Position numbers and translations under genes: made by a program. Positions 6,245 to 58,263 of a stretch of 64,000 nucleotides of DNA are shown one piece after another. The notes under the pieces are model-generated. The model did no database searches, was not told where the DNA came from, and worked only from the letters and a program-made list of their open reading frames with translations. The stretch's first letter is position 1; each line of letters opens with the position of its first letter. Source of the DNA: Methanomassiliicoccales archaeon UBA280 (lineage in GTDB: Archaea > Thermoplasmatota > Thermoplasmata > SG8-5); contig DAKD01000036.1 of assembly GCA_002499085.1 (NCBI GenBank), forward strand, positions 24,213 to 88,212, written 5' to 3'.

Positions 6245-6267
6245 TTTATCGGCAGGCAATAAACATA

Positions 6268-6282
6268 TAGGTTAATAAATGA
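6268..6282 (-). promoter_or_regulatory. TATA-like element upstream of the heptose operon
   Basis: The minus strand reads ATTTATTAAC about 28-36 nt upstream of the ATG at 6244. This is compatible with a leaderless or short-leader archaeal promoter. Confidence 0.3.
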
Positions 6283-6404
6283 TTTCCAGCCTGAACCGCC
6301 ACAGCAGCTTGAGTGTTGAATGCGACATAAAGTCCGAATGCCGAAGGCTTCGGATGCAGAAAAAAGCATTCGACGATGGTGCGGGAACATTTTTTAGCTA
6401 AATC

Positions 6405-6580
6405 CAGCGCCATAAAACATCAGCAATATGTGAGCATGGACTTGGGATAGAGATGATGCAGTTCCCAATCCCGAAGGGTTGGGATACCGATAAAATTCGC
6501 CATGAATCAGCAATATCTCAGTGGATAGATTCATGAAAATTCGGTAATCAGCATTTTCTTGGCGAAGAGATTACCGAGAT
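6405..6580. repeat. Three degenerate tandem units, each containing ATCAGCA(A/T)T(A/T)T; two form 8-bp-stem/19-nt-loop hairpins
   Basis: CATGAATC-N19-GATTCATG (6501-6535) and CGGTAATC-N19-GATTACCG (6542-6576). A related unit lies at 6410-6450. Another hairpin, CCCAATCCC-GAA-GGGTTGGG, lies at 6464-6483. Confidence 0.6.
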
Positions 6581-6582
6581 TC

Positions 6583-6647
6583 AGCCGCCTGTGACTATTG
6601 CTTTCATTGATTGAACATGTTCTCGCCGAATCCGCTTCGCGGACTCG
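6583..6647. repeat. Copy of the dispersed repeat family also found at 43061-43435
   Basis: GCCGCCT..TATTGCTTTCATTGATTGAACATGTTCTCGCCGAATCCGCTT shares the blocks GCCGCC, TATTGC, TTCATT, ATGTTCTC and GAATCCGCTT with units A/B/C next to the tRNA. Confidence 0.55.
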
Positions 6648-6931
6648 TCTATTTCCTCGGTGAGTTCCTCACCTGCGGTCTCGCCCGCATACCGCGACTT
6701 TTAAGTCTGCGGATAAGGGCGTTTTTATGCAATTCCGATGCGAGAAATTGTTCAATTAAAGTGCTCCCCACGATGTCAGTATGCTCCAAACATTTTCGAA
6801 TCTGCCTGAATGAGTAACTGGCGGTAGGTAATCACGAAATTCAGGGTGAAGACAATTAATGGATACCCCATGCTTTGGCTTGGGGAGCACTCATTCCCCG
6901 TATCCTATTGCGTTATTATTGGTTTTGCCGC

Positions 6932-30659: not shown

Positions 30660-30958
30660 TGATGATGCCGGATTTTAAAAATCTGGCTGTTGTGATGCAC
30701 AGCGTGCCTTAATCCCCTAGCCCCGCCTGTGTGAGGGTTGTAGCTATCTGGCATTTTTCAGCATCAACCTGAACGAGACGAATCGCTTGCGATTCGTTGC
30801 GAGGGCAGTGGTTTGGCGCCCCACCCACATCCCCCTGGCGCCCCGATGTATTGGCTCTCGCAAGGAATCGTTTCTCTCAATCTTTGCCCCGCAGCATGTT
30901 GGGGCGTTTCGCCCTGAAAAGGTTCCACCGCCTGGCAAACCCCATCGCCAGCCTGGGC

Positions 30959-33900
30959 TTATTGGGCATTGGCGCGCCTCCTCCTGCGGAACACGATAAC
31001 GGACATGCCGAAGGGGATGAATATGGCGATGAGGGCGGCCGAGAACTCGGGGATGATGACCGTGAGAACCTGTGTCCAGCCCGTGCCGTCGGCGCTCGAG
31101 GATGGACCTTTCTCGGGCGCACCCACAATTACATCGTTGTAGCCGTCGCCGTCCAGGTCTCCTGCCATGTCCACGGACCAACCGAAATGTTCGCCTGCCT
31201 GTGTGCCGTTCTTCACGTAATCGGCATTTGCAGCGCTGATGGCGCCGGCCATGGTGGCGGAGCCGTTGAAGATGTATACGGTTCCGGTCCCGCCGTTGCG
31301 ATAGGGCGCGCCGATGATGATGTCGTCGATGCCATCGTCTCCGGCCACTCCGTAGCCCACGTTGCCTGCGCCGGAGACGGACCAGCCGAATTTATCCCCG
31401 GAGGATTGGCCGGTGAGGGTGACGTAGGGGGGGGTGCAGTAGAGATAATGCAGAGTTATGTTGTACAATATCGGCGTGTCACCAACATGGGTGGTTGACA
31501 TTCTCACCTTGTAGCAGAGGTCCTTGCCGACGGCCTCGGTCGGGAACATGTACCATACACCATATTGTATCGCGGACTGGTTCCAGGTTGTGCCGCCATC
31601 TCTGGAAATGGCAATCCAGCCAACAGTGTTTGCTGAAGTGCTGATGTTCCAAAATGGTTTAATGGATGTGATGAAATGTGGAATTGTTGTTTGTGCAGAT
31701 GTATAATCTCCGGGAGATGATGTTGTATAAATTTTAAGGTCGTCCACATAAGCAAGGGGTTGACCGTTATTTGTTCTGGGCGCTCCGAAATTCCAAGGGA
31801 ATGTTGTAATCTCGATGTTATTTATGCTTGTGACGGCAGTGGTGAAACCTAGACCTGTGCCCGAAGAAACACCGTCGATGTAGAGGTCCATCAGGTCTGT
31901 GTTGCAATCAAAAACAACCCTGAAATGATACCATTGGTCGGGATTATATGTATCGAGCGAGTAAACTGTGGTTCCAATCTGATATGCGAAGCGCTCCTCG
32001 AAGAAGCCGACTTCAATGGCATCAGTCGTCCCGCTCCTCAGGATGACGGCAAATTGCTCTTCCGTTGTTCCCTGGTCTGAACATCTTGCCCAGAACTCGA
32101 AAGCCCCGACGGTGATTGCTGTAGCGAAATTACTAGTTATGATTGCACAACCCGTGTTTGCGGTGGCAGTATCGTCATCGAACATCAGAGACTTTGAGCC
32201 GCTATAAGAAACGGTGCCAGAGACATCCACTACGCGGCCTGTGCCCTCTGTAACTGTGCTCCAAGGAGACCCAGGATTGGTTCCAGCTGTGTAAGATTCG
32301 AAACCGTCATAGAACAATGTGGTCCCTGTCAGGTTGAGCTCACCAGTTGGCGTGGCGAAAATGCCACCGCTGGGATTGTTCGTGGCAAGGCTGCTGCCCA
32401 CCGATGTGAATTCCGTATAGGTATCATTATTGATGTGTGCCACATTGTCATAATCTCCGTCAAGCCAGACATACGCATTCCCGTTATCCGTTCCTGGCGC
32501 ACCGACTATGACGCCGTCGTTGCTGCCATCGACCTTGCCGGCACCGGCAACGGAGAAGCCGAACATAGTTTCAGAAACACCATACCGTATGTTGATAGTG
32601 TCTATGTAAACGGTATCCTGGCCGATTCCATCTGCTATGTTTGAATCGATGACATTGAGATAGAACACACCCGAGAGCGTGATTGGAAGCGGTGCGCTGT
32701 AGGTGGTTGAAGAAGCCGAGTTGATAGCTAACACAGGAGTGTAGGGTCCAGATAGTTCAGTTGAATAGCCTATCAGGAAGTCATCGTTCGATCCGGCGCT
32801 GTGATAGCCCGTTGCATAAAGAGTGAGTTTGTCTGCCCCGCCCGGTATGCTCTGCGTGCGCCAGCGATGCTCAAGGCTGTAGCTTGCAGGGCGTATGGCC
32901 AACTGGAAGTAAGCGGCACCATCAGTTACCGCGGAGGTGACACTGGCAGTTCCCGTCGCCCCCGCTGCCGCCTGAGCCTTCGTCCCCCAGCAGCCCGAGT
33001 TGTAGGTCGTGGCCGCGCCATTCGTCTGCTCTGTCGATTCTGTCCAGGGTGATGCGACAGAGAAGGGTGCGCCGTCGCCGCCGTCAAACGATAGACCGTA
33101 AATGGCCAGGCAGTTGTCCACTGTGGTGGTTATTTGTGGAATGACATGGGGATTCACACCCGTGGCTGTTGATATCGCAAAGTTCTGTGCATTGATTGGC
33201 GAAGTAGTATCCGCGCCCGAGATGCGGATGTACCATCCGAGCCAGTATGCCGCACCGGTCGTAGTGACCGTGACGGATGCACCTTCAAAACCGGTGGCGA
33301 TGCGCCAGTACGCTCCGATATATGCGTCGGGCGTGGCACTGCCGGATTCGCCGATCTTTGTCCAACCGGTGACTGCGTTGAAGTGCGGAGAGACAGTCGT
33401 TGCATAGTCATCTGTGACTATCAGGAGCAGGAGTTCACCCACGGTTATTCCGGCCGGGGCCGTGAGCGCACGGGAGTTGGATGTGGCGGTGTCGCCGTTC
33501 GACGCCTGAAACCCTTCCACGGTTGGCACTCTACTTACATCTAGCACTTCCTGTATGGATTGAGTCGCTCCATCTGGAGTGCCCAGTTCATCGATGTTCG
33601 TGTAGGTGTTGGCAACCGTACCCCAGACCGGGCTGTCCATATCCACAGTATAATCAGTGTAAGTAAATTTCATCTCGCCATATAAAACAGAGAATGGAAT
33701 GCTTCTGAAATACATATGGTCCAGATACAGCGTATCAAGCTGGGTGTGTGTCGAAGTTCTGTCCTTGTCTATGACGCCTATGTAAAGTGTGCCGAGGAAA
33801 TCATTCAGGACGGAATCGGAATATTTCTGGTAGGTATCGTCGTCTGCATTCTTCGTGATTGTGAGCATCAACGTCCAGCCTGTCGAACCGACCGTTCCCG

Positions 33901-36900
33901 TTCCAACCTTCGAGTAATAGATTTCGAAATCGTCTCCCTCAGCATTCGAGGTGCGGAAGGCGTCGATGAAGAATGTGCAATTCGACCTGTTTGGAACATC
34001 AACTAACCATTTATGTTCCAGAGCACTTGATGTTCTCATTCCAAATCGAACATACCATACTTGGTCCGTACCATCAGCAGTTCCAGCACCGTCATTGTTC
34101 ATATCGTAAGCCATTCTATTCGGATGGGATCCAGAAACCCAGGATCCAACGCTGCTTCCTGAACCGAAACCCGACCATTCTAGATCAAATAAAACACTGC
34201 CTACACCATCGTAATTGAAATCTGAATATCCTACATCGGAACCGATATTGAATGTAATCCCCCAATCATTGACTTTTCCAGTTAAAACAACATTGCTTGA
34301 ATCATAAACAAGGACACGGTTTGCAATTAGACCATTATAATTCCCAACCATATTTGTTGTTACTGTTGTTAATGCTCCAACATCACACAACCATATTCTG
34401 AAGTAGGATGTGCCATACGTGCCAGACACAGTAGTAGAGGTCCTGATAGAAATCTCCTCGATGTATCCTGCTGCCAATTCAGACTGAAGGTACAATTGTT
34501 GTTGTTTATAACCTGTATTATCATTTCTGAATGGGTCACTATAAGCCGTACCTTCAGTTCCGATTGCATAGTATGTACCTGTTGTGTAACCTTCTTTTAC
34601 AAACTCATAAGTGTCGCCCTGGGTGTGAGTATTGCTGTAAGTATTGGTTAGCGTCCCCAACACAGGGATGTCAGAATCCGCTGTTTCCTCTGTAGGCGCA
34701 TGATAAATATATGATGCATCCTTCCCCGGTTCTCCCACAATCACTTCAGAACCACCAACACCATCTGTGTTCCCGGCGCTGGAAACCGATGCTCCAAAAT
34801 TTCCGTTCGTGTGTCGGCCTGCCATTATCACATCCGCGCTTCCTGCAGCCGTCGGGATGCTCCCATCACCGTAAAAGATGTACGCCCGCCCTCTGCCGGA
34901 ATCGAACCCTTGGGCACCGATGATTATGTCATCGTTTCCTGCATCGTCGTAATCCCCCGCCCCTGACACGCTCGCCCCGAACCTGTCGCCCGCGGCCTCG
35001 CCCGTGATAGTAACGTCAGTGCTTGCCGTGGCCAGGTCAATGGTCTTCGGAGTTCCGCTGGTCAGCGTTGTTGAATAGAATATGTAAGCTCTGCCTGTGT
35101 CGGAACTGTGCCCCGGCGCCCCGATGATTATGTCCGGGCCTCCGCCGTTAACATCACCGGCATCGCTCACGTCCCATCCCAGCTCATCCCCTGCGGCAGC
35201 CCCGAGAATTGTGACGTCCGCGCTCGCCGGGTCGAGGTAATTTGCGTTGGCAGACGTGAACCCGTCGTATCCGAAGAACACGTATGCGGCGCCTTCCCCG
35301 CCATTTGTTCCAGGGGCTCCGACGATGACGTCGCCGTAACCGTCGGCGTTTATGTCCCCGGCATACGAGACGTTCCATCCGAACTTGTCCCCGGCATTTC
35401 CGCCGTAACCGGATGTGACCTCTGCCATCGTTATCATGTCCTGGTCCGTTAACTCATCGCCCGGGCCGGACCTCGTCGCCGCCAGCTCCGTGGCTATCTG
35501 GTCCTCCTTGGCATCATCCCCGTCCTCGTTCCATGCCTCTATCTCGAACCATGCTGTTGCATTGGGGTCCAGCTGAACCGCTATGTATGATTCCAGCTCC
35601 CTGGAGTCCTTCATGTAGGCGGGAGTGCCGATCTGGCTCCAGGACCATGCGCCCTGGTTAGTTCCGACGAACCTGCTGTGGCCTGATGTCTTAACGGAGC
35701 CGTGCTTTCCCGTGAACTGGACCATCCTGTCCGCGCCCATGCCCCCTATCGAGTATCCCGTGGAAGGGTCCGCGTCCGTGTCCAGGTATATCCTGGCAGT
35801 GTCGTCGCCCGTGACCACCGGCTTTTCGACCCTTCCGATGAAGACATTGGCCATGACCGTGCCGCCCTGCTCCCAGACAAGGTACTCGTCAGAGCCGTAT
35901 GGATAGTCCGCGATGCCGTCGGAGTCGACGTCCCTCTGGCCGGCGGAATTCACCGACTGGGCGTCAGGTACGCCGTCGTTGTTGAAATCAAGTTCGTAAC
36001 CTGGCTGCTCCTGGTCGTCGGGTATCCCGTCCCTGTCCGAGTCCGGGGAAACAGGCTGTGGGTTGGGGTTTGGCGCCCTGGCTGTGGATTCAATGGGCAC
36101 CAGGCTGCCTGACATGAACTCACCGATGGATGAGATGTGAAGGTATGCGCCAGTTCCGTCGCTGACTGCGCCGTAGCACCTGATGTCGGCGCTGCTCTTT
36201 TTCCCTGTGGAAACTTCGTTGATCTGGTCGAAAAGCTGTCTGTCCCTCCAGTCGGAGAAACCGCCGTCGACCACGGGTATCTGGGGCACTGAGCCGATGT
36301 AGCAGAGCTCGTTCTGCCCCACGGCGACCTCGAGCCATGCCATGGCTCCCGAGAGGGCAATGTCCCCCGGCGCCGCGATCCTCAGGCCCAGCGTCCTGGA
36401 TGCCGCCGCCGATGCGGAGATGTCTGCCTGGACTGTGAGGTTGAGGGTTTCGCCGGCTGCCAGGGTTCTGCCGACCGTGAAGGACATTGAAGCCGCGGGC
36501 GGGGCCGAGCTTATCTCCGTGCCGGCCGCGTCCAACAGCCTCACTGCGCTCATTGCCGAGGCGCCCGCTGTCCCTTCCAGTGTGAGCCTGATGCTGTCGA
36601 CCGCCGAGTCGCCGCACTTGCCCTCGAACAGGATTGCGAGCAGGTTCTGGCCCGAGCCTGACACTGTCTCGGGTGCGATAGCGTACTGGCTGATGCGCAT
36701 CGAGCATAGGGAGTTGCTGACTAGGCAATCCGAATAATCCACGTATCCGTCCCAGGACTGCGAATGCACCAGGACCGATATGTCTGTGCCCTGCGCGACC
36801 TGAAGCCTGGACCAGGGAATCTGGGTCTCGAGCCTGCTGCCTGCGGCCTCTGCCCTTCCGGAGCCTGTGCTCTCGAACCCGTTCCAGTCGTCCGAGTCTC

Positions 36901-39424
36901 TCTCGGCCGAGAAGGCATAATGCGTGGTGTGAACGGCATCCCCTTGCCATCCTGCGATCGCAATCATGAAGTCCGCGCCCATGCCCCTGATGGAATAACC
37001 CGTGTCCGCATCCAGGTCTGAATCTATCATGATGTGGAACATGTCCATGATGCCCTCGCTGGCCACGGGTTCGCCCCTGAGAATGTCGCCTTCCACCTCC
37101 ACACAGAATGAGACATATGTTTCAGCGTTCTCCGCGACCCAGGCGCCGACAATGTCGATGCTGTCAGGTATCCCCGAGGGCACGGAGCTTATGCCGGATA
37201 TGTCGTTCCAGTCTGCGAATTCGCCGTCGATGTTGATGGGATACCGGACAGTGTCATTTGAGCCGGGGTACATGACCGGGATTATCAGTAGGAGCGCCAG
37301 AACCAGTGCGCCGTAGAGCACCCATCTGCTGCGCTGAGCCCTCTTCCGAATCACGTTGCGCCTGATGGATATCCCGCCCTCGCCTCCCAGACCGTTTGTG
37401 AGCCCGTTGGTAAGGCCGTTCGTGCGCCCGAGCCCGTTTGTAAGGCCGTTGGTCCTACCCAGGCCGTTCGTGAGGCCATTGGTCCTGCCGAGGCCGTTTG
37501 TAAGTCCGTTGGTTCTTCCGAGGCCATTGGTCCTACCGAGGCCGTTCGTGAGTCCGTTCGTTTTCCCCAGGCCGTTTGTAAGTCCGTTTGTTCTTCCGAG
37601 GCCGTTCGTGCGGCCCAATCCATTGGTGCGGCCCAATCCGTTTGTGCGGCCCAGGCCGTTCGTCATGCCCTTGGATCTTGCCAGGCCGTTGGTGAGGCCT
37701 TTTGCCTTCCCCGGGGGAGGGGCAGGCCTCTCCTTCTTTATGTCCTTCATCGGCTCCGGCCGGGCCAATCTCTCCAGCTCATCCAAATCTGCCATCCCGT
37801 CGGTTTCGAGCTTCCTGATGTCAGATTCCTCGAGAGCGTCGCCCAGGGAAGTTAGCTCGGCCAGGAGCTCGTCCTTGAACTCCGATTCCTTGTCATCGGA
37901 CGTGAATTCCTTGACAGGCGTTTCCTTCAGGCGTTTCCTGTCTATTGCCGATTTGACCTCTCTCGTGAAATCCGCGACGCTGATGCCTGTGCTTATCAGC
38001 AGTTCGAGCCTGGCCCTGTCATCCTCGAGTATCTTGGCCGCCTTCAGCATCCTGCCGCATCTGTCCAGCCTATCGATCTCCTCGGGCGTGAGCTTGGGGG
38101 CTTCCAGGGTTCCCAGCTCTTCAAGGAACTTGTCCTCGTCAGCCTCGCGCTTCCTCTTGCCTGCATCGAGCTCCAGGGTCTCGTCAATGGACCACAGCTC
38201 GTCCTCGAGGGACTTCTCGTCAACACCCAGGTCCGTGATGACGGACCCCAGGGCTTCGTCCTCCAGGTCCGCCGTCTTCTTTGGCAGCTTCCCGGCGAGT
38301 TTCGCGATCTTCGGGCTGGGTGTCTTGTCGACGACCATGGATTCGAGTTCCTTGGCCAAGTCCTCGGATTTCATTGGCTTGACCGGGGCCTCGGCAGCCC
38401 GCCTGTAGCAGTTCGCGGCCTTCTCGTGCTCCCCCATCTTCGTGAACACTTCGGCCTTCTCGGCCCACACGCCCGGGTGGTCCATGTCGAGTTTTGTGAC
38501 CTCATTCAGAGACTTCATTGCCAGGTCCAGGTGGCCGAGTTTTGATTGCGTGGAGCCGAGCGCGAACCAGCTCTCGATGTCCTTCGGGTTGATCCGGACC
38601 CTTTCCTCGTATCTGCCCAACATTTGGTTCAGTTCCTGCTCGGCCTGAACCTCCTCCTCCTCTTTCATTATCATGCCGCATTCGTAGCATACCTTCTCAT
38701 CGGTGCTGAGAATGGTGCCGCAGAGCGGGCACTGTATTTCCTCGAGTTCCTTGGCCGGTGCAGGAACCTCAAGTCTCTCTTGGGCCCTGCTTTCCAGCCT
38801 GTCCTGGAACGTGAGGATTATCTTGATCTTCTGCGCGGATTTCAGGCCGATTCCGTTGACCTGGGCCAGCTCGTCCACGTTGGCCTCTTTGAGGTCCTCG
38901 ATGTTCCTGAACCCTGCATCATAGAGGGCTTTGGCCTTCAGGTCACCGATTCCGGGAACTTCCATGAGGACTGCGATGGCCTTGGCCTTGAGCTGCTGCT
39001 CCGGTTTTGCGAATCCCTCCCTGAGGATGTCTTCGGCAATGTCCTTGAGCGTTATGGGGGATGTGAGCAATTCCAGGTATGGGCTTTTCGTCTCCGAACA
39101 GGCTGCCTTGACAGCCTGAAGGAATTTCGCGGCCGCTTCCTCGTACTTGCCCCTCAGGTTCTGGCTGAGGCCGAGGGCCAGGTACAGCGCCGACCAATTG
39201 GCGCCGAGCGCTTCTGCCCGTGAGAACGATGCCCATGCTTCATCATGGTTGCCCATGGCCAGATGCACCTGCCCGTACTCAAACCAGAGCTGGGCGTTGC
39301 CCGGGTCCCTCTGGAGCAGCTTCCTCAGTCTGGTAAGTTCTGTCTTGCCGCTGCCCTGGTCGTCGGATTCCGACACGCGGCTCCATTTCGCCGCAAAGTC
39401 CTCGGTGAAACGTTTCTCGGCCAT
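30959..39424 (-). CDS. Giant (2821 aa) two-anchor membrane protein: cytosolic TPR-(HhH)2-Zn-ribbon-TPR, TNGL repeats, TM, huge FG-GAP/TSP3/LamG-type ectodomain, PEF-CTERM-like end
   Basis: There is no signal peptide. N-terminal TPRs (NAQLWFEYGQVHLAMGNHDEAWASFSRA...). HhH pair PGIGDLKAKALYDAGF / VNGIGLKSAQKI. Zn ribbon CPLCG...CYECG. Acidic coiled region. An array of (GLGRTN/GLTN) repeats. RRNVIRKRAQRSR followed by the TM helix WVLYGALVLALLLIIPVMY. D-x-D-x-D-G Ca-binding repeats (DSDRDGIPDD, DFNNDGVPD, DVDSDGIAD). At least 6 FG-GAP repeats (GDINADGYGDVIVGAPG...AYVFFG). A ConA/LamG-like module (PLAYVDDLKIY). The C-terminus reads IIPEF-SAALIAIFIPFGMSVIVF-RRRRR. Confidence 0.9.
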   Translation of the reverse strand: MAEKRFTEDFAAKWSRVSESDDQGSGKTELTRLRKLLQRDPGNAQLWFEYGQVHLAMGNHDEAWASFSRAEALGANWSALYLALGLSQNLRGKYEEAAAKFLQAVKAACSETKSPYLELLTSPITLKDIAEDILREGFAKPEQQLKAKAIAVLMEVPGIGDLKAKALYDAGFRNIEDLKEANVDELAQVNGIGLKSAQKIKIILTFQDRLESRAQERLEVPAPAKELEEIQCPLCGTILSTDEKVCYECGMIMKEEEEVQAEQELNQMLGRYEERVRINPKDIESWFALGSTQSKLGHLDLAMKSLNEVTKLDMDHPGVWAEKAEVFTKMGEHEKAANCYRRAAEAPVKPMKSEDLAKELESMVVDKTPSPKIAKLAGKLPKKTADLEDEALGSVITDLGVDEKSLEDELWSIDETLELDAGKRKREADEDKFLEELGTLEAPKLTPEEIDRLDRCGRMLKAAKILEDDRARLELLISTGISVADFTREVKSAIDRKRLKETPVKEFTSDDKESEFKDELLAELTSLGDALEESDIRKLETDGMADLDELERLARPEPMKDIKKERPAPPPGKAKGLTNGLARSKGMTNGLGRTNGLGRTNGLGRTNGLGRTNGLTNGLGKTNGLTNGLGRTNGLGRTNGLTNGLGRTNGLTNGLGRTNGLTNGLGRTNGLTNGLTNGLGGEGGISIRRNVIRKRAQRSRWVLYGALVLALLLIIPVMYPGSNDTVRYPINIDGEFADWNDISGISSVPSGIPDSIDIVGAWVAENAETYVSFCVEVEGDILRGEPVASEGIMDMFHIMIDSDLDADTGYSIRGMGADFMIAIAGWQGDAVHTTHYAFSAERDSDDWNGFESTGSGRAEAAGSRLETQIPWSRLQVAQGTDISVLVHSQSWDGYVDYSDCLVSNSLCSMRISQYAIAPETVSGSGQNLLAILFEGKCGDSAVDSIRLTLEGTAGASAMSAVRLLDAAGTEISSAPPAASMSFTVGRTLAAGETLNLTVQADISASAAASRTLGLRIAAPGDIALSGAMAWLEVAVGQNELCYIGSVPQIPVVDGGFSDWRDRQLFDQINEVSTGKKSSADIRCYGAVSDGTGAYLHISSIGEFMSGSLVPIESTARAPNPNPQPVSPDSDRDGIPDDQEQPGYELDFNNDGVPDAQSVNSAGQRDVDSDGIADYPYGSDEYLVWEQGGTVMANVFIGRVEKPVVTGDDTARIYLDTDADPSTGYSIGGMGADRMVQFTGKHGSVKTSGHSRFVGTNQGAWSWSQIGTPAYMKDSRELESYIAVQLDPNATAWFEIEAWNEDGDDAKEDQIATELAATRSGPGDELTDQDMITMAEVTSGYGGNAGDKFGWNVSYAGDINADGYGDVIVGAPGTNGGEGAAYVFFGYDGFTSANANYLDPASADVTILGAAAGDELGWDVSDAGDVNGGGPDIIIGAPGHSSDTGRAYIFYSTTLTSGTPKTIDLATASTDVTITGEAAGDRFGASVSGAGDYDDAGNDDIIIGAQGFDSGRGRAYIFYGDGSIPTAAGSADVIMAGRHTNGNFGASVSSAGNTDGVGGSEVIVGEPGKDASYIYHAPTEETADSDIPVLGTLTNTYSNTHTQGDTYEFVKEGYTTGTYYAIGTEGTAYSDPFRNDNTGYKQQQLYLQSELAAGYIEEISIRTSTTVSGTYGTSYFRIWLCDVGALTTVTTNMVGNYNGLIANRVLVYDSSNVVLTGKVNDWGITFNIGSDVGYSDFNYDGVGSVLFDLEWSGFGSGSSVGSWVSGSHPNRMAYDMNNDGAGTADGTDQVWYVRFGMRTSSALEHKWLVDVPNRSNCTFFIDAFRTSNAEGDDFEIYYSKVGTGTVGSTGWTLMLTITKNADDDTYQKYSDSVLNDFLGTLYIGVIDKDRTSTHTQLDTLYLDHMYFRSIPFSVLYGEMKFTYTDYTVDMDSPVWGTVANTYTNIDELGTPDGATQSIQEVLDVSRVPTVEGFQASNGDTATSNSRALTAPAGITVGELLLLIVTDDYATTVSPHFNAVTGWTKIGESGSATPDAYIGAYWRIATGFEGASVTVTTTGAAYWLGWYIRISGADTTSPINAQNFAISTATGVNPHVIPQITTTVDNCLAIYGLSFDGGDGAPFSVASPWTESTEQTNGAATTYNSGCWGTKAQAAAGATGTASVTSAVTDGAAYFQLAIRPASYSLEHRWRTQSIPGGADKLTLYATGYHSAGSNDDFLIGYSTELSGPYTPVLAINSASSTTYSAPLPITLSGVFYLNVIDSNIADGIGQDTVYIDTINIRYGVSETMFGFSVAGAGKVDGSNDGVIVGAPGTDNGNAYVWLDGDYDNVAHINNDTYTEFTSVGSSLATNNPSGGIFATPTGELNLTGTTLFYDGFESYTAGTNPGSPWSTVTEGTGRVVDVSGTVSYSGSKSLMFDDDTATANTGCAIITSNFATAITVGAFEFWARCSDQGTTEEQFAVILRSGTTDAIEVGFFEERFAYQIGTTVYSLDTYNPDQWYHFRVVFDCNTDLMDLYIDGVSSGTGLGFTTAVTSINNIEITTFPWNFGAPRTNNGQPLAYVDDLKIYTTSSPGDYTSAQTTIPHFITSIKPFWNISTSANTVGWIAISRDGGTTWNQSAIQYGVWYMFPTEAVGKDLCYKVRMSTTHVGDTPILYNITLHYLYCTPPYVTLTGQSSGDKFGWSVSGAGNVGYGVAGDDGIDDIIIGAPYRNGGTGTVYIFNGSATMAGAISAANADYVKNGTQAGEHFGWSVDMAGDLDGDGYNDVIVGAPEKGPSSSADGTGWTQVLTVIIPEFSAALIAIFIPFGMSVIVFRRRRRANAQ
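37388..37700 (-). repeat. In-frame imperfect tandem repeat encoding about 25 units of G-L-(G-R)-T-N, immediately cytosolic of the TM helix
   Basis: The protein reads GLTNGLARSKGMTNGLGRTNGLGRTNGLGRTNGLGRTNGLTNGLGKTNGLTNGLGRTNGL...GLTNGLTNGLGGEGG. The DNA shows 12/18-nt periodicity with synonymous variation. Confidence 0.9.
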
Positions 39425-42665: not shown

Positions 42666-42787
42666 TTTATCCTCCTTGCCTGACAGGATGGCAAGGGCGG
42701 ATTTAAGGAATTGGATGAGGTACTGCCTGTTTGAATGCCATAAATTAAATATAGAATAGGGCTTTCCGCTGATGGACATAGCAAAAA

Positions 42788-42808
42788 GGGCCCGTAGCTT
42801 AGTCCGGT
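42788..42808 (+). repeat. Exact 21-nt duplicate of the tRNA 5' end (acceptor strand plus start of D arm)
   Basis: GGGCCCGTAGCTTAGTCCGGT is identical at 42788-42808 and 42961-42981. Confidence 0.95.
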
Positions 42809-42809
42809 A

Positions 42810-42917
42810 CGTCAAGATGACAGGCCGAAGTACAAGCCATCTTGACGTGAGGACGAGTCCGAAGGATTCGTCCGTATCCACAAGATATCTGGAAGCAATC
42901 GATAGTAATTCTTGTGG
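42810..42917 (+). ncRNA. Three consecutive strong hairpins following the tRNA-5' duplicate (candidate structured RNA; function unknown)
   Basis: The first is 42810-42847, with 10-bp stem CGTCAAGATG/CATCTTGACG. The second is 42851-42873, with 10-bp stem GGACGAGTCC/GGATTCGTCC and a GAA loop. The third is 42878-42917, with 8-bp stem CCACAAGA/TCTTGTGG. Confidence 0.35.
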
Positions 42918-42960
42918 GAGGACTAAGATGCGGGACAGAATCTAAGCAATAAACAGCTAA

Positions 42961-43034
42961 GGGCCCGTAGCTTAGTCCGGTGGAGCGTTTGGCTCATAAC
43001 CAATTGGTCGCCGGTTCAAATCCGGTCGGGCCCA
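42961..43034 (+). tRNA. tRNA-Met: tRNA with CAU anticodon (elongator Met, or Ile2 if C34 is modified)
   Basis: A manual cloverleaf fold works. Acceptor GGGCCCG/CGGGCCC, D arm GCTT-AGTCCGGTG-GAGC, anticodon loop CT-CAT-AA, variable loop TGGTC, T arm GCCGG-TTCAAAT-CCGGT, discriminator A. No encoded CCA. G1:C72 argues against an initiator. One T:T mismatch sits at the top of the anticodon stem. Confidence 0.85.
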
Positions 43035-43035
43035 C

Positions 43036-43044
43036 TTTTATTTT
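43036..43044 (+). terminator. Oligo-T tract TTTTATTTT directly after the tRNA
   Basis: Archaeal-type T-rich termination signal 2 nt after the discriminator base. Confidence 0.5.
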
Positions 43045-43060
43045 ATAAGCTGATAGTCGT

Positions 43061-43128
43061 GGGCCCGACCTATCGCTGCCTATTGCTATCAAATGTTCTC
43101 AGTGAAGGCAGCGATCCGGTCGGGCCAC
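43061..43128 (+). repeat. Repeat unit A: long hairpin whose 3' strand copies the tRNA T-stem/acceptor 3' strand (tRNA minihelix mimic)
   Basis: GGCCCGACC-t-ATCGCTGCC [26-nt loop TATTGC...CAGTGAA] GGCAGCGAT-cc-GGTCGGGCC. ATCCGGTCGGGCC (43114-43126) is identical to tRNA positions 43018-43030. Confidence 0.8.
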
Positions 43129-43289
43129 TGTGTTAGAGCTGATATTGCTATAAAAGTGGGCAAGACGAACACGTTTCCGATGCTCTCTCAACACAGTGTT
43201 CGTCGCAGTCGCCAAACTAGCGCCCGTAAGCAACAACCAATCAGAGTCTGTTTGGCGATTGTCAGCTCTAGCATGGAGTCGTCTCTTTC

Positions 43290-43343
43290 ATTCTTTTGCT
43301 ATTATCTGTTCGTAAGTGAAGGCAGCGATCCGGTCGAATCCGC
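43290..43343 (+). repeat. Repeat unit B (loop plus 3' arm only)
   Basis: TTTTGCTATTATCTGTTCGTAAGTGAAGGCAGCGATCCGGTCGAATCCGC. The core AGTGAAGGCAGCGATCCGGTCG lies at 43315-43336. CGAATCCGC (43335-43343) pairs with GCGGATTCG (43367-43375). Confidence 0.75.
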
Positions 43344-43375
43344 TTATCGAGCATATGGGTTCATCCGCGGATTCG

Positions 43376-43435
43376 GCCTCTCGCCGCCTATTGCATTCAT
43401 TAGCCAACAGTGAAGGCGGCGATCCGGTCGAACCC
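43376..43435 (+). repeat. Repeat unit C: hairpin homologous to unit A
   Basis: GGCC-tc-TCGCCGCC [26-nt loop TATTGCATTCATTAGCCAACAGTGAA] GGCGGCGA-tcc-GGTC. The core lies at 43409-43430. Confidence 0.75.
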
Positions 43436-43553
43436 ATTACACCAACTTTGCACATGGCCGTGGTTGTTGGCAGTTAGAATTTTCTAGCCAATTTTATGAT
43501 CCGATTATTACGGAATCTTTGTTGACCGAGTTTTCCAACAGGACCCAATATAT

Positions 43554-57468: not shown

Positions 57469-58263
57469 TTATCCTGCCTTTTCGGCCAGGAGCAACACGA
57501 ACCGACATTCGCAGTCCCCGCCCATTATCGAGCTTGTGTTGTCCAGCGTGAAGGCAAGCCCCGTCCTCATGGCGAAACGCGATATGACGCATCTCGCGGA
57601 AAAGCAGAAATTCGGGTTTGGGCCCAGGGATTCCATCCACACGCATTTCGAGTTGCTCAGTGTGACTGTGTTGCCCTGGATTCTATAACTGAATTCCATG
57701 CCCATGAGGTTGAAGAACTTGCAAAGCCAGTTCGCCATCGTTTCCTTGGTCAGGGTCAGGCCTTCCTTGCCCGGAATGAATTTGTTTATCACTTCCGTCT
57801 CAAGCCGCTCGGAAACCCTCTGAATACTGCCCGGATCGTCCGTCCTGAGCCGAGTGACCAGGCCCAGGAAGGATTCGCGTATCTGGTTCCTCTTCCTCTC
57901 CATGTCGGACAATGCAACTTCGATGGCGTTGAACAGCGAGTCCATCCTGAACGGTTTCAGTATGAAGCTGTGGGCGCCGAGGTCCATGACCTTCTTCGCG
58001 GCTTCGTAATCGGCGGTAACGAAGATGATGCACTGGAGCGGGTTGATGAGGTGTATGTTCCTCATTGCCGTGATGCCGTCGCTCTTCGGCATCCTGTGGT
58101 CCATCAGGATGACATCAGGCTTGTCCTTCAATGCGCTGTAAAGGATTACTGCCTCCTCGCCGTCGCGCGCCTCGCACACGACATTGTGGCTGCGTATCTC
58201 GAGCACGTTCTTGTAAACCTCGAGTATGGACGGCTCGTCATCCACCAGCATCAGGGTCGCCAT
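57469..58263 (-). CDS. Response regulator with C-terminal Cys-containing V4R/methanogen-output-like domain
   Basis: Receiver motifs: LMLVDDEP, VILMDHRMP, IFVTAD, FILKP. The C-terminal ~130 aa has CVWME...CFSARC...GGDCECRF, which is reminiscent of V4R/MetOD-type ligand-binding modules. That assignment is tentative. Confidence 0.75.
   Translation of the reverse strand: MATLMLVDDEPSILEVYKNVLEIRSHNVVCEARDGEEAVILYSALKDKPDVILMDHRMPKSDGITAMRNIHLINPLQCIIFVTADYEAAKKVMDLGAHSFILKPFRMDSLFNAIEVALSDMERKRNQIRESFLGLVTRLRTDDPGSIQRVSERLETEVINKFIPGKEGLTLTKETMANWLCKFFNLMGMEFSYRIQGNTVTLSNSKCVWMESLGPNPNFCFSARCVISRFAMRTGLAFTLDNTSSIMGGDCECRFVLLLAEKAG

Follow-up and report, generated by a model that had tools for sequence, protein, structure and literature searches.

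The repeat units A, B and C that lie downstream of a tRNA-Met gene in Methanomassiliicoccales archaeon UBA280 are interpreted here as the ends of cassettes generated by recombination at a tRNA integration hotspot, a reading given a probability of about one half. They are members of a family of hairpin modules (HD, U, F, K and P1) that is specific to this lineage of Thermoplasmata, adjoins many of its tRNA genes on the 3' side and appears to be new to description. The architecture of the repeats, the family and its linkage to tRNA genes, the direct and inverted copies matched to the target tRNA, and the polymorphism of cassettes between relatives can all be read directly from the loci compared.

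The tRNA-Met Locus

The window, meaning the entire stretch of 64,000 nt analyzed, includes a non-coding stretch of ~890 bp that houses the cassettes and is bordered by a tautomerase gene on one side and the gene for a YdjM-like membrane protein on the other. The one real tRNA of this stretch is tRNA-Met(CAT), and the repeated arms have its last 16 nt (43020-43035) as their template. The window also encodes a CDP-archaeol synthase and an EamA transporter, the homologs of which are named Thermoplasmata by NCBI, and a sequence identical to the window is present in three metagenome assemblies. The main features are given below, where R1 is a covariance model of HD and R2 a covariance model of the unit hairpin, which recovers units A, C and B.

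42786..42958, + strand: 5' leader module (D4, I3, I5, I8; fold)
42961..43035, + strand: tRNA-Met (CAT) (ARAGORN; Rfam RF00005, 66.4 bits)
43029..43122, + strand: cassette Z, 94 nt, holding unit A (I7, I22, D3; fold; R2 match, 66.9 bits)
43123..43336, + strand: cassette Y, 214 nt, holding the HD module and unit B (I2, I10, I11, I24; fold)
43337..43430, + strand: cassette X, 94 nt, holding unit C (I12, I13, D1-D3; fold; R2 match, 72 bits)
30777..30886, + strand: diverged second HD copy (R1 match, 27.7 bits, E 0.0012)

Two predictions were set aside. A tRNA-Ser(CGA) flagged by ARAGORN at 58158-58234 (- strand) lies inside a response-regulator ORF, is unseen by Rfam and is very likely a false positive, while a 106-aa ORF (43093-43413) was rejected as coding because close relatives have this region in rearranged and inverted form. 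The window also carries a gene (30959-39424, - strand) for a 2821-aa secreted or surface protein with an extended series of TNGLGR-type peptide repeats and FG-GAP-like repeats, and orthologs of this protein flank the tRNA-Met locus in all relatives.

The module on the 5' side mirrors the layout of the 3' side of tRNA-Met. In it, the 5' end of tRNA-Met is duplicated exactly over 23 nt (42786-42808), three hairpins are present, and an imperfectly matching antisense segment (42920-42934) is located 26 nt ahead of the tRNA. The 173 nt are predicted to fold as a cloverleaf-shaped four-way junction (z -6.7), and the same layout is kept in the related loci L026 and L033. An archaeal TATA-like motif, AAATATAG, is found upstream of the 5'-end copy and not of tRNA-Met itself, so that, judged from the sequence, tRNA-Met may be transcribed together with this long 5' leader.

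Architecture of the Cassettes

The earlier note had described a 22-nt core, AGTGAAGGC(A/G)GCGATCCGGTCG, common to units A, B and C, and this core has exactly three sites (43101, 43315 and 43409), with none expected and none found in 100 shuffles. The 13 nt ATCCGGTCGGGCC of unit A (43114-43126) are, as claimed, identical to the 3' end region of tRNA-Met (43020-43032), and perfect 9-nt inverted arms (GGCCCGACC/GGTCGGGCC) are also present. A shorter 9-nt core, ATCCGGTCG, occurs in four copies, in tRNA-Met and in units A, B and C. Within the tRNA it covers the final two T-loop nucleotides, the 3' strand of the T stem and the first two acceptor bases. To the left of the copies there is always the U hairpin, and to the right the sequences differ (GGCCCAC, GGCCAC, AATCCGC and AACCCAT). 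The four copies cut the region into the three cassettes, Z, Y and X, every one of which ends in a copy of the last 9-13 bases of tRNA-Met. Spacing from start to start is a regular 94/214/94 nt, not irregular as first thought. The locus is no CRISPR array, in which identical repeats of about 24-48 nt would be regularly spaced by unique sequences of similar length: the spacing here is 94/214/94 nt and the 'spacers' are homologous modules common to several loci.

In cassette Z, GGCCCAC is followed by a 23-nt spacer (43036-43058), the inverted arm GTGGGCCCGACC (43059-43070), the U hairpin (stem 43072-43080 / 43107-43115, with a 26-nt loop, TATTGC...AGTGAA) and the core (43114-43122). Cassette X has the same order, with AATCCGC, a 23-nt spacer, the inverted arm GCGGATTCGGCC (43367-43378), the U hairpin and the core (43422-43430), directly after which comes AACCCAT (43431-43437). 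The longer cassette Y contains helices P0 (43131-43142 / 43262-43273), P2 (43164-43172 / 43196-43204) and P3 (43210-43257) together with the P1 3' strand ATAAAAGTGGGC (43150-43161), and its 3' part is made up of a conserved linker (~43266-43297), unit B, which is a U hairpin without the 5' arm, and the core (43328-43336). R1 matches cassette Y at 43164-43297 (109.7 bits) and R2 matches unit B with 20 bits. An 8-nt sequence, AGCTGATA, a candidate target duplication, flanks unit A on both sides but is offset from the ends of the unit.

Unit A folds strongly (-40.5 kcal/mol, z -7.3), as does unit C to a lesser degree (-31.2 kcal/mol, z -3.3), and no fold is seen for unit B (z +1.1), which lacks the 5' arm. 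The three hairpins reported between A and B (I10, I24 and I11) are present as well and form, with an outer helix, a closed domain (z -3.5). A different pairing turned out to be the better conserved one. The last 12 nt of tRNA-Met, GGTCGGGCCCAC, pair perfectly with the 5' arm of unit A across a 23-nt AT-rich spacer, forming the hairpin H1 (-29 kcal/mol, z -6.3), and the 3' arm of unit B pairs with the 5' arm of unit C over another 23-nt spacer (z -4.5). Across the window, L007, L025 and L011, every 5' arm pairs better with the 3' arm before it (10-12 of 12 Watson-Crick pairs) than with the 3' arm of its own unit (5-10 of 12); for the orthologous units of L007 and L025 the corresponding values are 10-12 and 5-8 of 12. 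The 'minihelix' formed by the two arms of one unit is therefore not the conserved feature, and the repeating module is instead H1 (arm, 23 nt, inverted arm), followed by U (9-bp stem, 26-nt loop TATTGC...RGTGAA) and the core. Between relatives, the arms of cassette X carry a compensatory change (AATCCGC/GCGGATT versus AATACGC/GCGTGTT).

Mimicry of a tRNA minihelix, or tRNA-like punctuation, as proposed at first, is not supported: the own-arm helix is not conserved, the units have no T loop, wobble pairs are nearly absent, and both ARAGORN and the Rfam tRNA model see only the real tRNA. The only related match, a weak one to permuted tmRNA, is below threshold (25.8 bits versus a cut-off of 47). 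Nor could a related copy be confirmed at 6583-6647, where there is no fold (z -0.35) and no R2 match at E <= 10, and where local alignment with the units yields at best a 14-nt word (13/14), with a score equalled in 11 of 500 shuffles. The surrounding spacer (6260-6875) is long and has several hairpins, and contains other dispersed small modules that are distinct from the U and HD families; pieces of it recur in L011 (12146-12205, 75% over 61 nt) and L007 (6932-6971, 88% over 41 nt).

A Family of Hairpin Modules at tRNA 3' Flanks

The hairpins between units A and B build HD, a module of ~135 nt in which the variable hairpin P2 is joined by P3, a hairpin that is nearly invariant (CGCCAAAC...GTTTGGCG), and by the conserved linker (AGCTCTTGCATGGARTCGTTTCTNTCATCCTTC). 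Metagenome contigs were scanned for the conserved P3 hairpin, and this gathered 14 loci. In these related contigs HD is found beside tRNA genes of ten anticodon identities, and for nine of the ten it is downstream and on the same strand (Met, Glu, three copies at His, Pro, Val, two copies at Leu, Asn and Arg), while in one locus it is divergent from tRNA-Ala. The idea that copies adjoin tRNA genes is thus borne out for this hairpin domain in metagenomic contigs. The genes flanking the HD loci are ordinary host genes, and in several loci (L026, L012, L020, L016 and L021) HD is upstream of a gene on the same strand. Full-length HD elements of L014, L018, L021 and L022 normally have the U hairpin as their 3' component.

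P3 and the linker are nearly invariant in ~20 copies, including those of relatives in which the flanking EamA protein is only ~75% identical. Such conservation is too high for neutrality, and as a comparison of sequences it indicates that P3 and the linker have some sequence-specific function, whatever its nature. The diverged HD copy at 30777-30886 has kept P2 and the linker and has P3 replaced; it is situated just 3' of the giant gene for the 2821-aa protein, with a tRNA-5'-like fragment, GGTTGTAGCTATCTGGCA, ahead of it and no tRNA gene beside it.

Searches for known relatives gave little. Only the tRNA model of Rfam passes the gathering threshold in the window, none passes in eight related loci, and permissive thresholds returned nothing relevant for HD or the units. 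The P3 pattern and linker motif of HD had no matches in IMG/VR. The 22-nt core was likewise absent from IMG/VR and gave one chance match, to a Pseudomonadota MAG, among GTDB representative genomes, so the core is lineage-specific and unusable for finding relatives. Further readings of HD were set aside. The variable 20-22-nt loops of P3, considered as guide RNAs, have no sense or antisense matches in their own loci beyond those of cross-locus controls; a short ORF on the opposite strand of the linker fails because its stop codon is not conserved; and the conserved loops, compared by eye with the consensus sequences, fit none of K-turn, box C/D, H/ACA, hammerhead or group II motifs.

Copies Matched to the Local tRNA

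Five of the tRNAs in the fetched loci are followed by direct copies of their own last 12-16 nt, always starting from ATCC (Met, two Glu, Gly, two Leu and two Arg). Inverted copies of the tRNA's own end, 23 nt past the gene, are found for Met and Glu. In cross-locus controls, only two matches of at least 10 nt occurred among pairs of different isotype. A ~150-nt cassette, P1-F-K, is present after tRNA-Gly, tRNA-Arg and tRNA-Leu with 82% column identity; its P1 stem and terminal repeat match each local tRNA, and each example terminates in a direct copy of its own tRNA 3' end. The P1-F-K cassettes are the following.

L012, 3536-3700
L021, 9884-10050
L017 (reverse complement), after tRNA-Leu

A MITE-like dispersed element was one of the possibilities raised in the earlier note. 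The modules are indeed dispersed, and linked to tRNA genes, but the arms are copies of the local tRNA end that vary from one locus to the next (Met, Glu, Arg, Leu and Gly) and there are no fixed terminal inverted repeats, so this is not a plain MITE.

The Orthologous Locus in Relatives

The block around tRNA-Met differs between relatives, listed here by the identity of their EamA protein to that of the window (window = 100%).

L026, EamA 75%: 5' module, tRNA, P1, HD, tautomerase; without units
L032, EamA 76%: one unit, then HD
L007 and L025, EamA 84%: Z-X-HD
Window, EamA 100%: Z-HD-X

The whole block is inverted relative to EamA and the flanking genes in L007, L009, L025 and L032. Large elements are inserted in tRNA-Met in L009, L007 and L033, and the 3' fragment of the tRNA stays joined to HD. 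The insertion in L009 starts with the gene for a 448-aa protein, a distant tyrosine recombinase identified by three weak but concordant matches (PF00589, E 2.4e-5; XerA model, E 8e-6; PDB 4a8e, E 0.07). No homolog of this integrase was detected in the window or other loci, a non-exhaustive scan of the window ORFs yielded no recombinase gene, and neither an excised form nor a pair of empty and filled sites with exact junctions was observed.

At the ends of the large elements that abut tRNA-Met in L033 (4163-4215) and the tRNA-Met 3' fragment in L007 (7945-8010) there is a palindrome, GTTCACGAGTGAAC in L033 and the one-mismatch variant GTTCACTCGTGAAT in L007, and these ends also hold an inverted piece of the anticodon-stem/variable region of the tRNA. 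In L030/L031 (5920-7100), the 3' end of the EamA gene carries an inserted element that encodes Bro-N and is bounded by a ~20-nt direct repeat of the gene end.

Covariation and Strand Symmetry

Five of the six pairs of P2 show double changes and none a one-sided change, with 96% of cells paired, and double changes are seen in five of the nine pairs of U. The covariation of P2 and U exceeds that of shuffled and slid controls, and a one-sided (wobble) change is seen only once across the two. P2 and P3 cells include 254 Watson-Crick pairs, no G:T and three A:C, and those of U include 83 Watson-Crick, one G:T and two A:C. Folds are equally strong on both strands, and neither wobble pairs nor folding energy revealed any asymmetry by which a strand could be assigned.

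These data bear on whether HD and the units are functional RNA domains of the tRNA trailer or of an antisense transcript, in other words a structured non-coding RNA. Possible roles would be small RNAs released by RNase Z/RNase P, decoys that would neutralize the antisense arms, or cis-regulation of the downstream gene. The strong folds of the units, the 5' leader and HD, the covariation of P2 and U, the near-invariance of P3 and the linker, the position of HD ahead of same-strand genes in the five loci noted above, and a few G:T wobbles in the H1 arms on the tRNA-sense strand are all points in its favor. There is also a precedent in Methanopyrus kandleri, where a palindromic motif 3' of about half of the tRNA genes was proposed as a 3'-maturation signal (PMC5217627). 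That motif is similarly lineage-specific and at a fixed distance after many tRNA genes, but it is a single short motif (>=18 positions, i.e., at least 18) and not a set of modular 50-150-nt hairpin domains with tRNA-end copies.

Structured RNA is nevertheless unlikely. A T-rich tract occurs immediately 3' of each tRNA examined, and such tracts are known to act as archaeal terminators. H1 takes up 12 nt of the tRNA itself and, as RNA, would therefore compete with tRNA folding. Further points against an RNA are the loss of the own-arm helix in orthologs, the lack of an Rfam family, and P3 loops that are no better complements of local sequences than are controls. Maintenance of the palindromes at the DNA level is favored, given the scarcity of wobble pairs, the equal folds of the two strands, the T tract after tRNAs, and the overlap of H1 with the tRNA.

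Proposed Recombination at the tRNA 3' End

Decayed att sites, the last suggestion of the earlier note, come closest to the evidence, since tRNA genes have direct copies of their own ends and tRNA-Met has received insertions. Even so the att-site reading is incomplete, and 'decayed' is too weak a term for modules that are conserved, covarying and re-ordered between relatives. The att arrays that tyrosine-recombinase integrative elements leave at tRNA genes, and the cis-mobilisable remnants (CIMEs) that form by accretion, resemble the present locus in that direct repeats of the tRNA 3' part, from the T loop to the end, are stacked several deep behind an intact tRNA (the repeats being identical to it over 12-16 nt at five tRNAs), inversions occur at the locus, and large integrated elements of relatives use the same tRNA, one of them starting with the distant tyrosine-recombinase gene. 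Differences are that the bounded segments here are non-coding and only 94-214 bp long, a recombinase abutting the site in L009 alone rather than being inside the bounded element; that one module family serves many tRNAs; and that each cassette has an additional, inverted copy of the repeat 23 nt away. The mirror-image module on the 5' side of tRNA-Met is unusual for integrase att sites, and counts against the recombination reading.

All cassettes share one plan: the distal bases of the acceptor strand and a 23-nt spacer come first, after which the inverted arm pairs with the preceding arm as H1, with a 12-bp stem; a conserved hairpin is next, either U or the larger HD module plus U, and the core closes the cassette. 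It is inferred that DNA recombination at the tRNA 3' end has generated, amplified and re-ordered the cassettes, the likeliest agent being a tyrosine recombinase of integrative elements that use tRNA-Met. Replication template switching probably makes and keeps the perfect palindromes, and cassettes could move as units, for example as excised circles or as folded single strands, like integron cassettes or CTX-type elements. Mobile-element integration is a general source of tRNA gene fragments (PMC9897764), and inversion of the DNA that lies between att sites is described for an archaeal integrase (PMC5495485). How a single family of modules can serve many tRNAs with matched arms is not accounted for by a classical attP x attB model, nor is the inverted copy of the local end that always lies ~23 nt away. 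The recombination reading is further weakened by the near-invariance of P3 and the linker, by cassettes that have neither terminal inverted repeats nor IMG/VR matches, and by the failure to find a recombinase gene among the scanned ORFs of the window or to observe an excised form.

Integron attC cassette arrays and the folded single-strand att sites of CTX-type (IMEX) elements offer a further analogy. By this analogy, the ~70-nt imperfect palindromes with two stacked helices and a variable loop would be comparable, as would conservation of structure above that of sequence, a cassette order that varies between relatives, and an outer 3' arm that is a hybrid, with its distal part belonging to the next cassette. 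The a-loop-a'-body-a layout would be the expected leftover of integration by a hairpin att. On the other hand, there is no IntI, no attI and no integrase nearby, the core is ATCCGGTCG and not GTTRRRY, the cassettes have no ORFs, and the array is anchored to a tRNA; only the two-helix palindrome is attC-like.

More speculatively, the cassettes might be archaeal non-autonomous mobile elements of a class not described before, homing to tRNA gene ends by means of a hairpin att (arm, 23-nt loop, inverted arm), the stem of which would reproduce the target duplex. Integration might take place as a folded single strand, or by shuffling in the manner of integron cassettes, and the invariant P3/linker module might be a recombinase-binding or replication element. 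The non-coding cassettes would then form tRNA-anchored arrays resembling those of CRISPR or of integrons.

Less probable than either a structured RNA or the recombination cassettes is a passive by-product of a highly transcribed, hairpin-rich tRNA gene, in which tandem duplication, slippage and template switching would yield direct and inverted copies with no dedicated machinery and no function. The perfect palindromes, in which single-sided changes are almost absent, the regular 94-nt period, and the homology between the inverted arm of unit A and the P1 3' strand of the HD cassette are consistent with such an origin. They have to be weighed against modules that recur after different tRNAs at 82% identity, a P3 and linker conserved across diverged relatives, and a cassette order that is swapped between relatives, and the proposal is improbable.

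Marginally the weakest proposal is target-duplicating transposition by a casposon-like or other transposase with the conserved T loop as 'leader', whereby small non-autonomous elements making a 13-16-bp target-site duplication would build a CRISPR-like array of tRNA-end repeats: the repeats (12-16 nt, a constant ATCC start in the tRNA, matching whichever tRNA is local) and the recurrence of the same modules after many tRNAs would fit, but the inspected cassette ends have no terminal inverted repeats, neither the window nor the fetched flanks showed a Cas1, PolB or transposase gene, and the inverted arm is left unexplained. The resemblance is to the casposons of Aciduliprofundum boonei and Methanosarcina mazei, in which the T-psi-C region of a tRNA is the fixed left landmark, a segment of ~15 bp at the tRNA 3' end is duplicated, and tandem accumulation occurs. 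The target of the A. boonei casposase consists of a T-psi-C loop 'leader' and a duplicated 15-bp segment at the 3' end of tRNA-Pro, and tandem arrays have been both predicted and seen (PMC5137440). That duplication lies mostly beyond the tRNA and overlaps it by only 5 bp, whereas the repeats described here are almost wholly inside it.

Significance of the Cassettes

The hairpin-module family marks a hotspot of inversion and insertion, and its tRNA-end fragments and long palindromes can mislead both tRNA annotation and metagenome assembly. Should HD prove to be a functional RNA or a protein-binding site, the 3' flanks of tRNA genes in this uncultured lineage would have a conserved motif that is new. 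Cassettes that are mobile would instead amount to a novel type of archaeal element that targets tRNA genes, and to a natural system in which a single site of recombination fits many different tRNA ends. They would then bear on the choice of tRNA targets by integrases and casposases, and on ideas about the origin of repeat arrays such as CRISPR.
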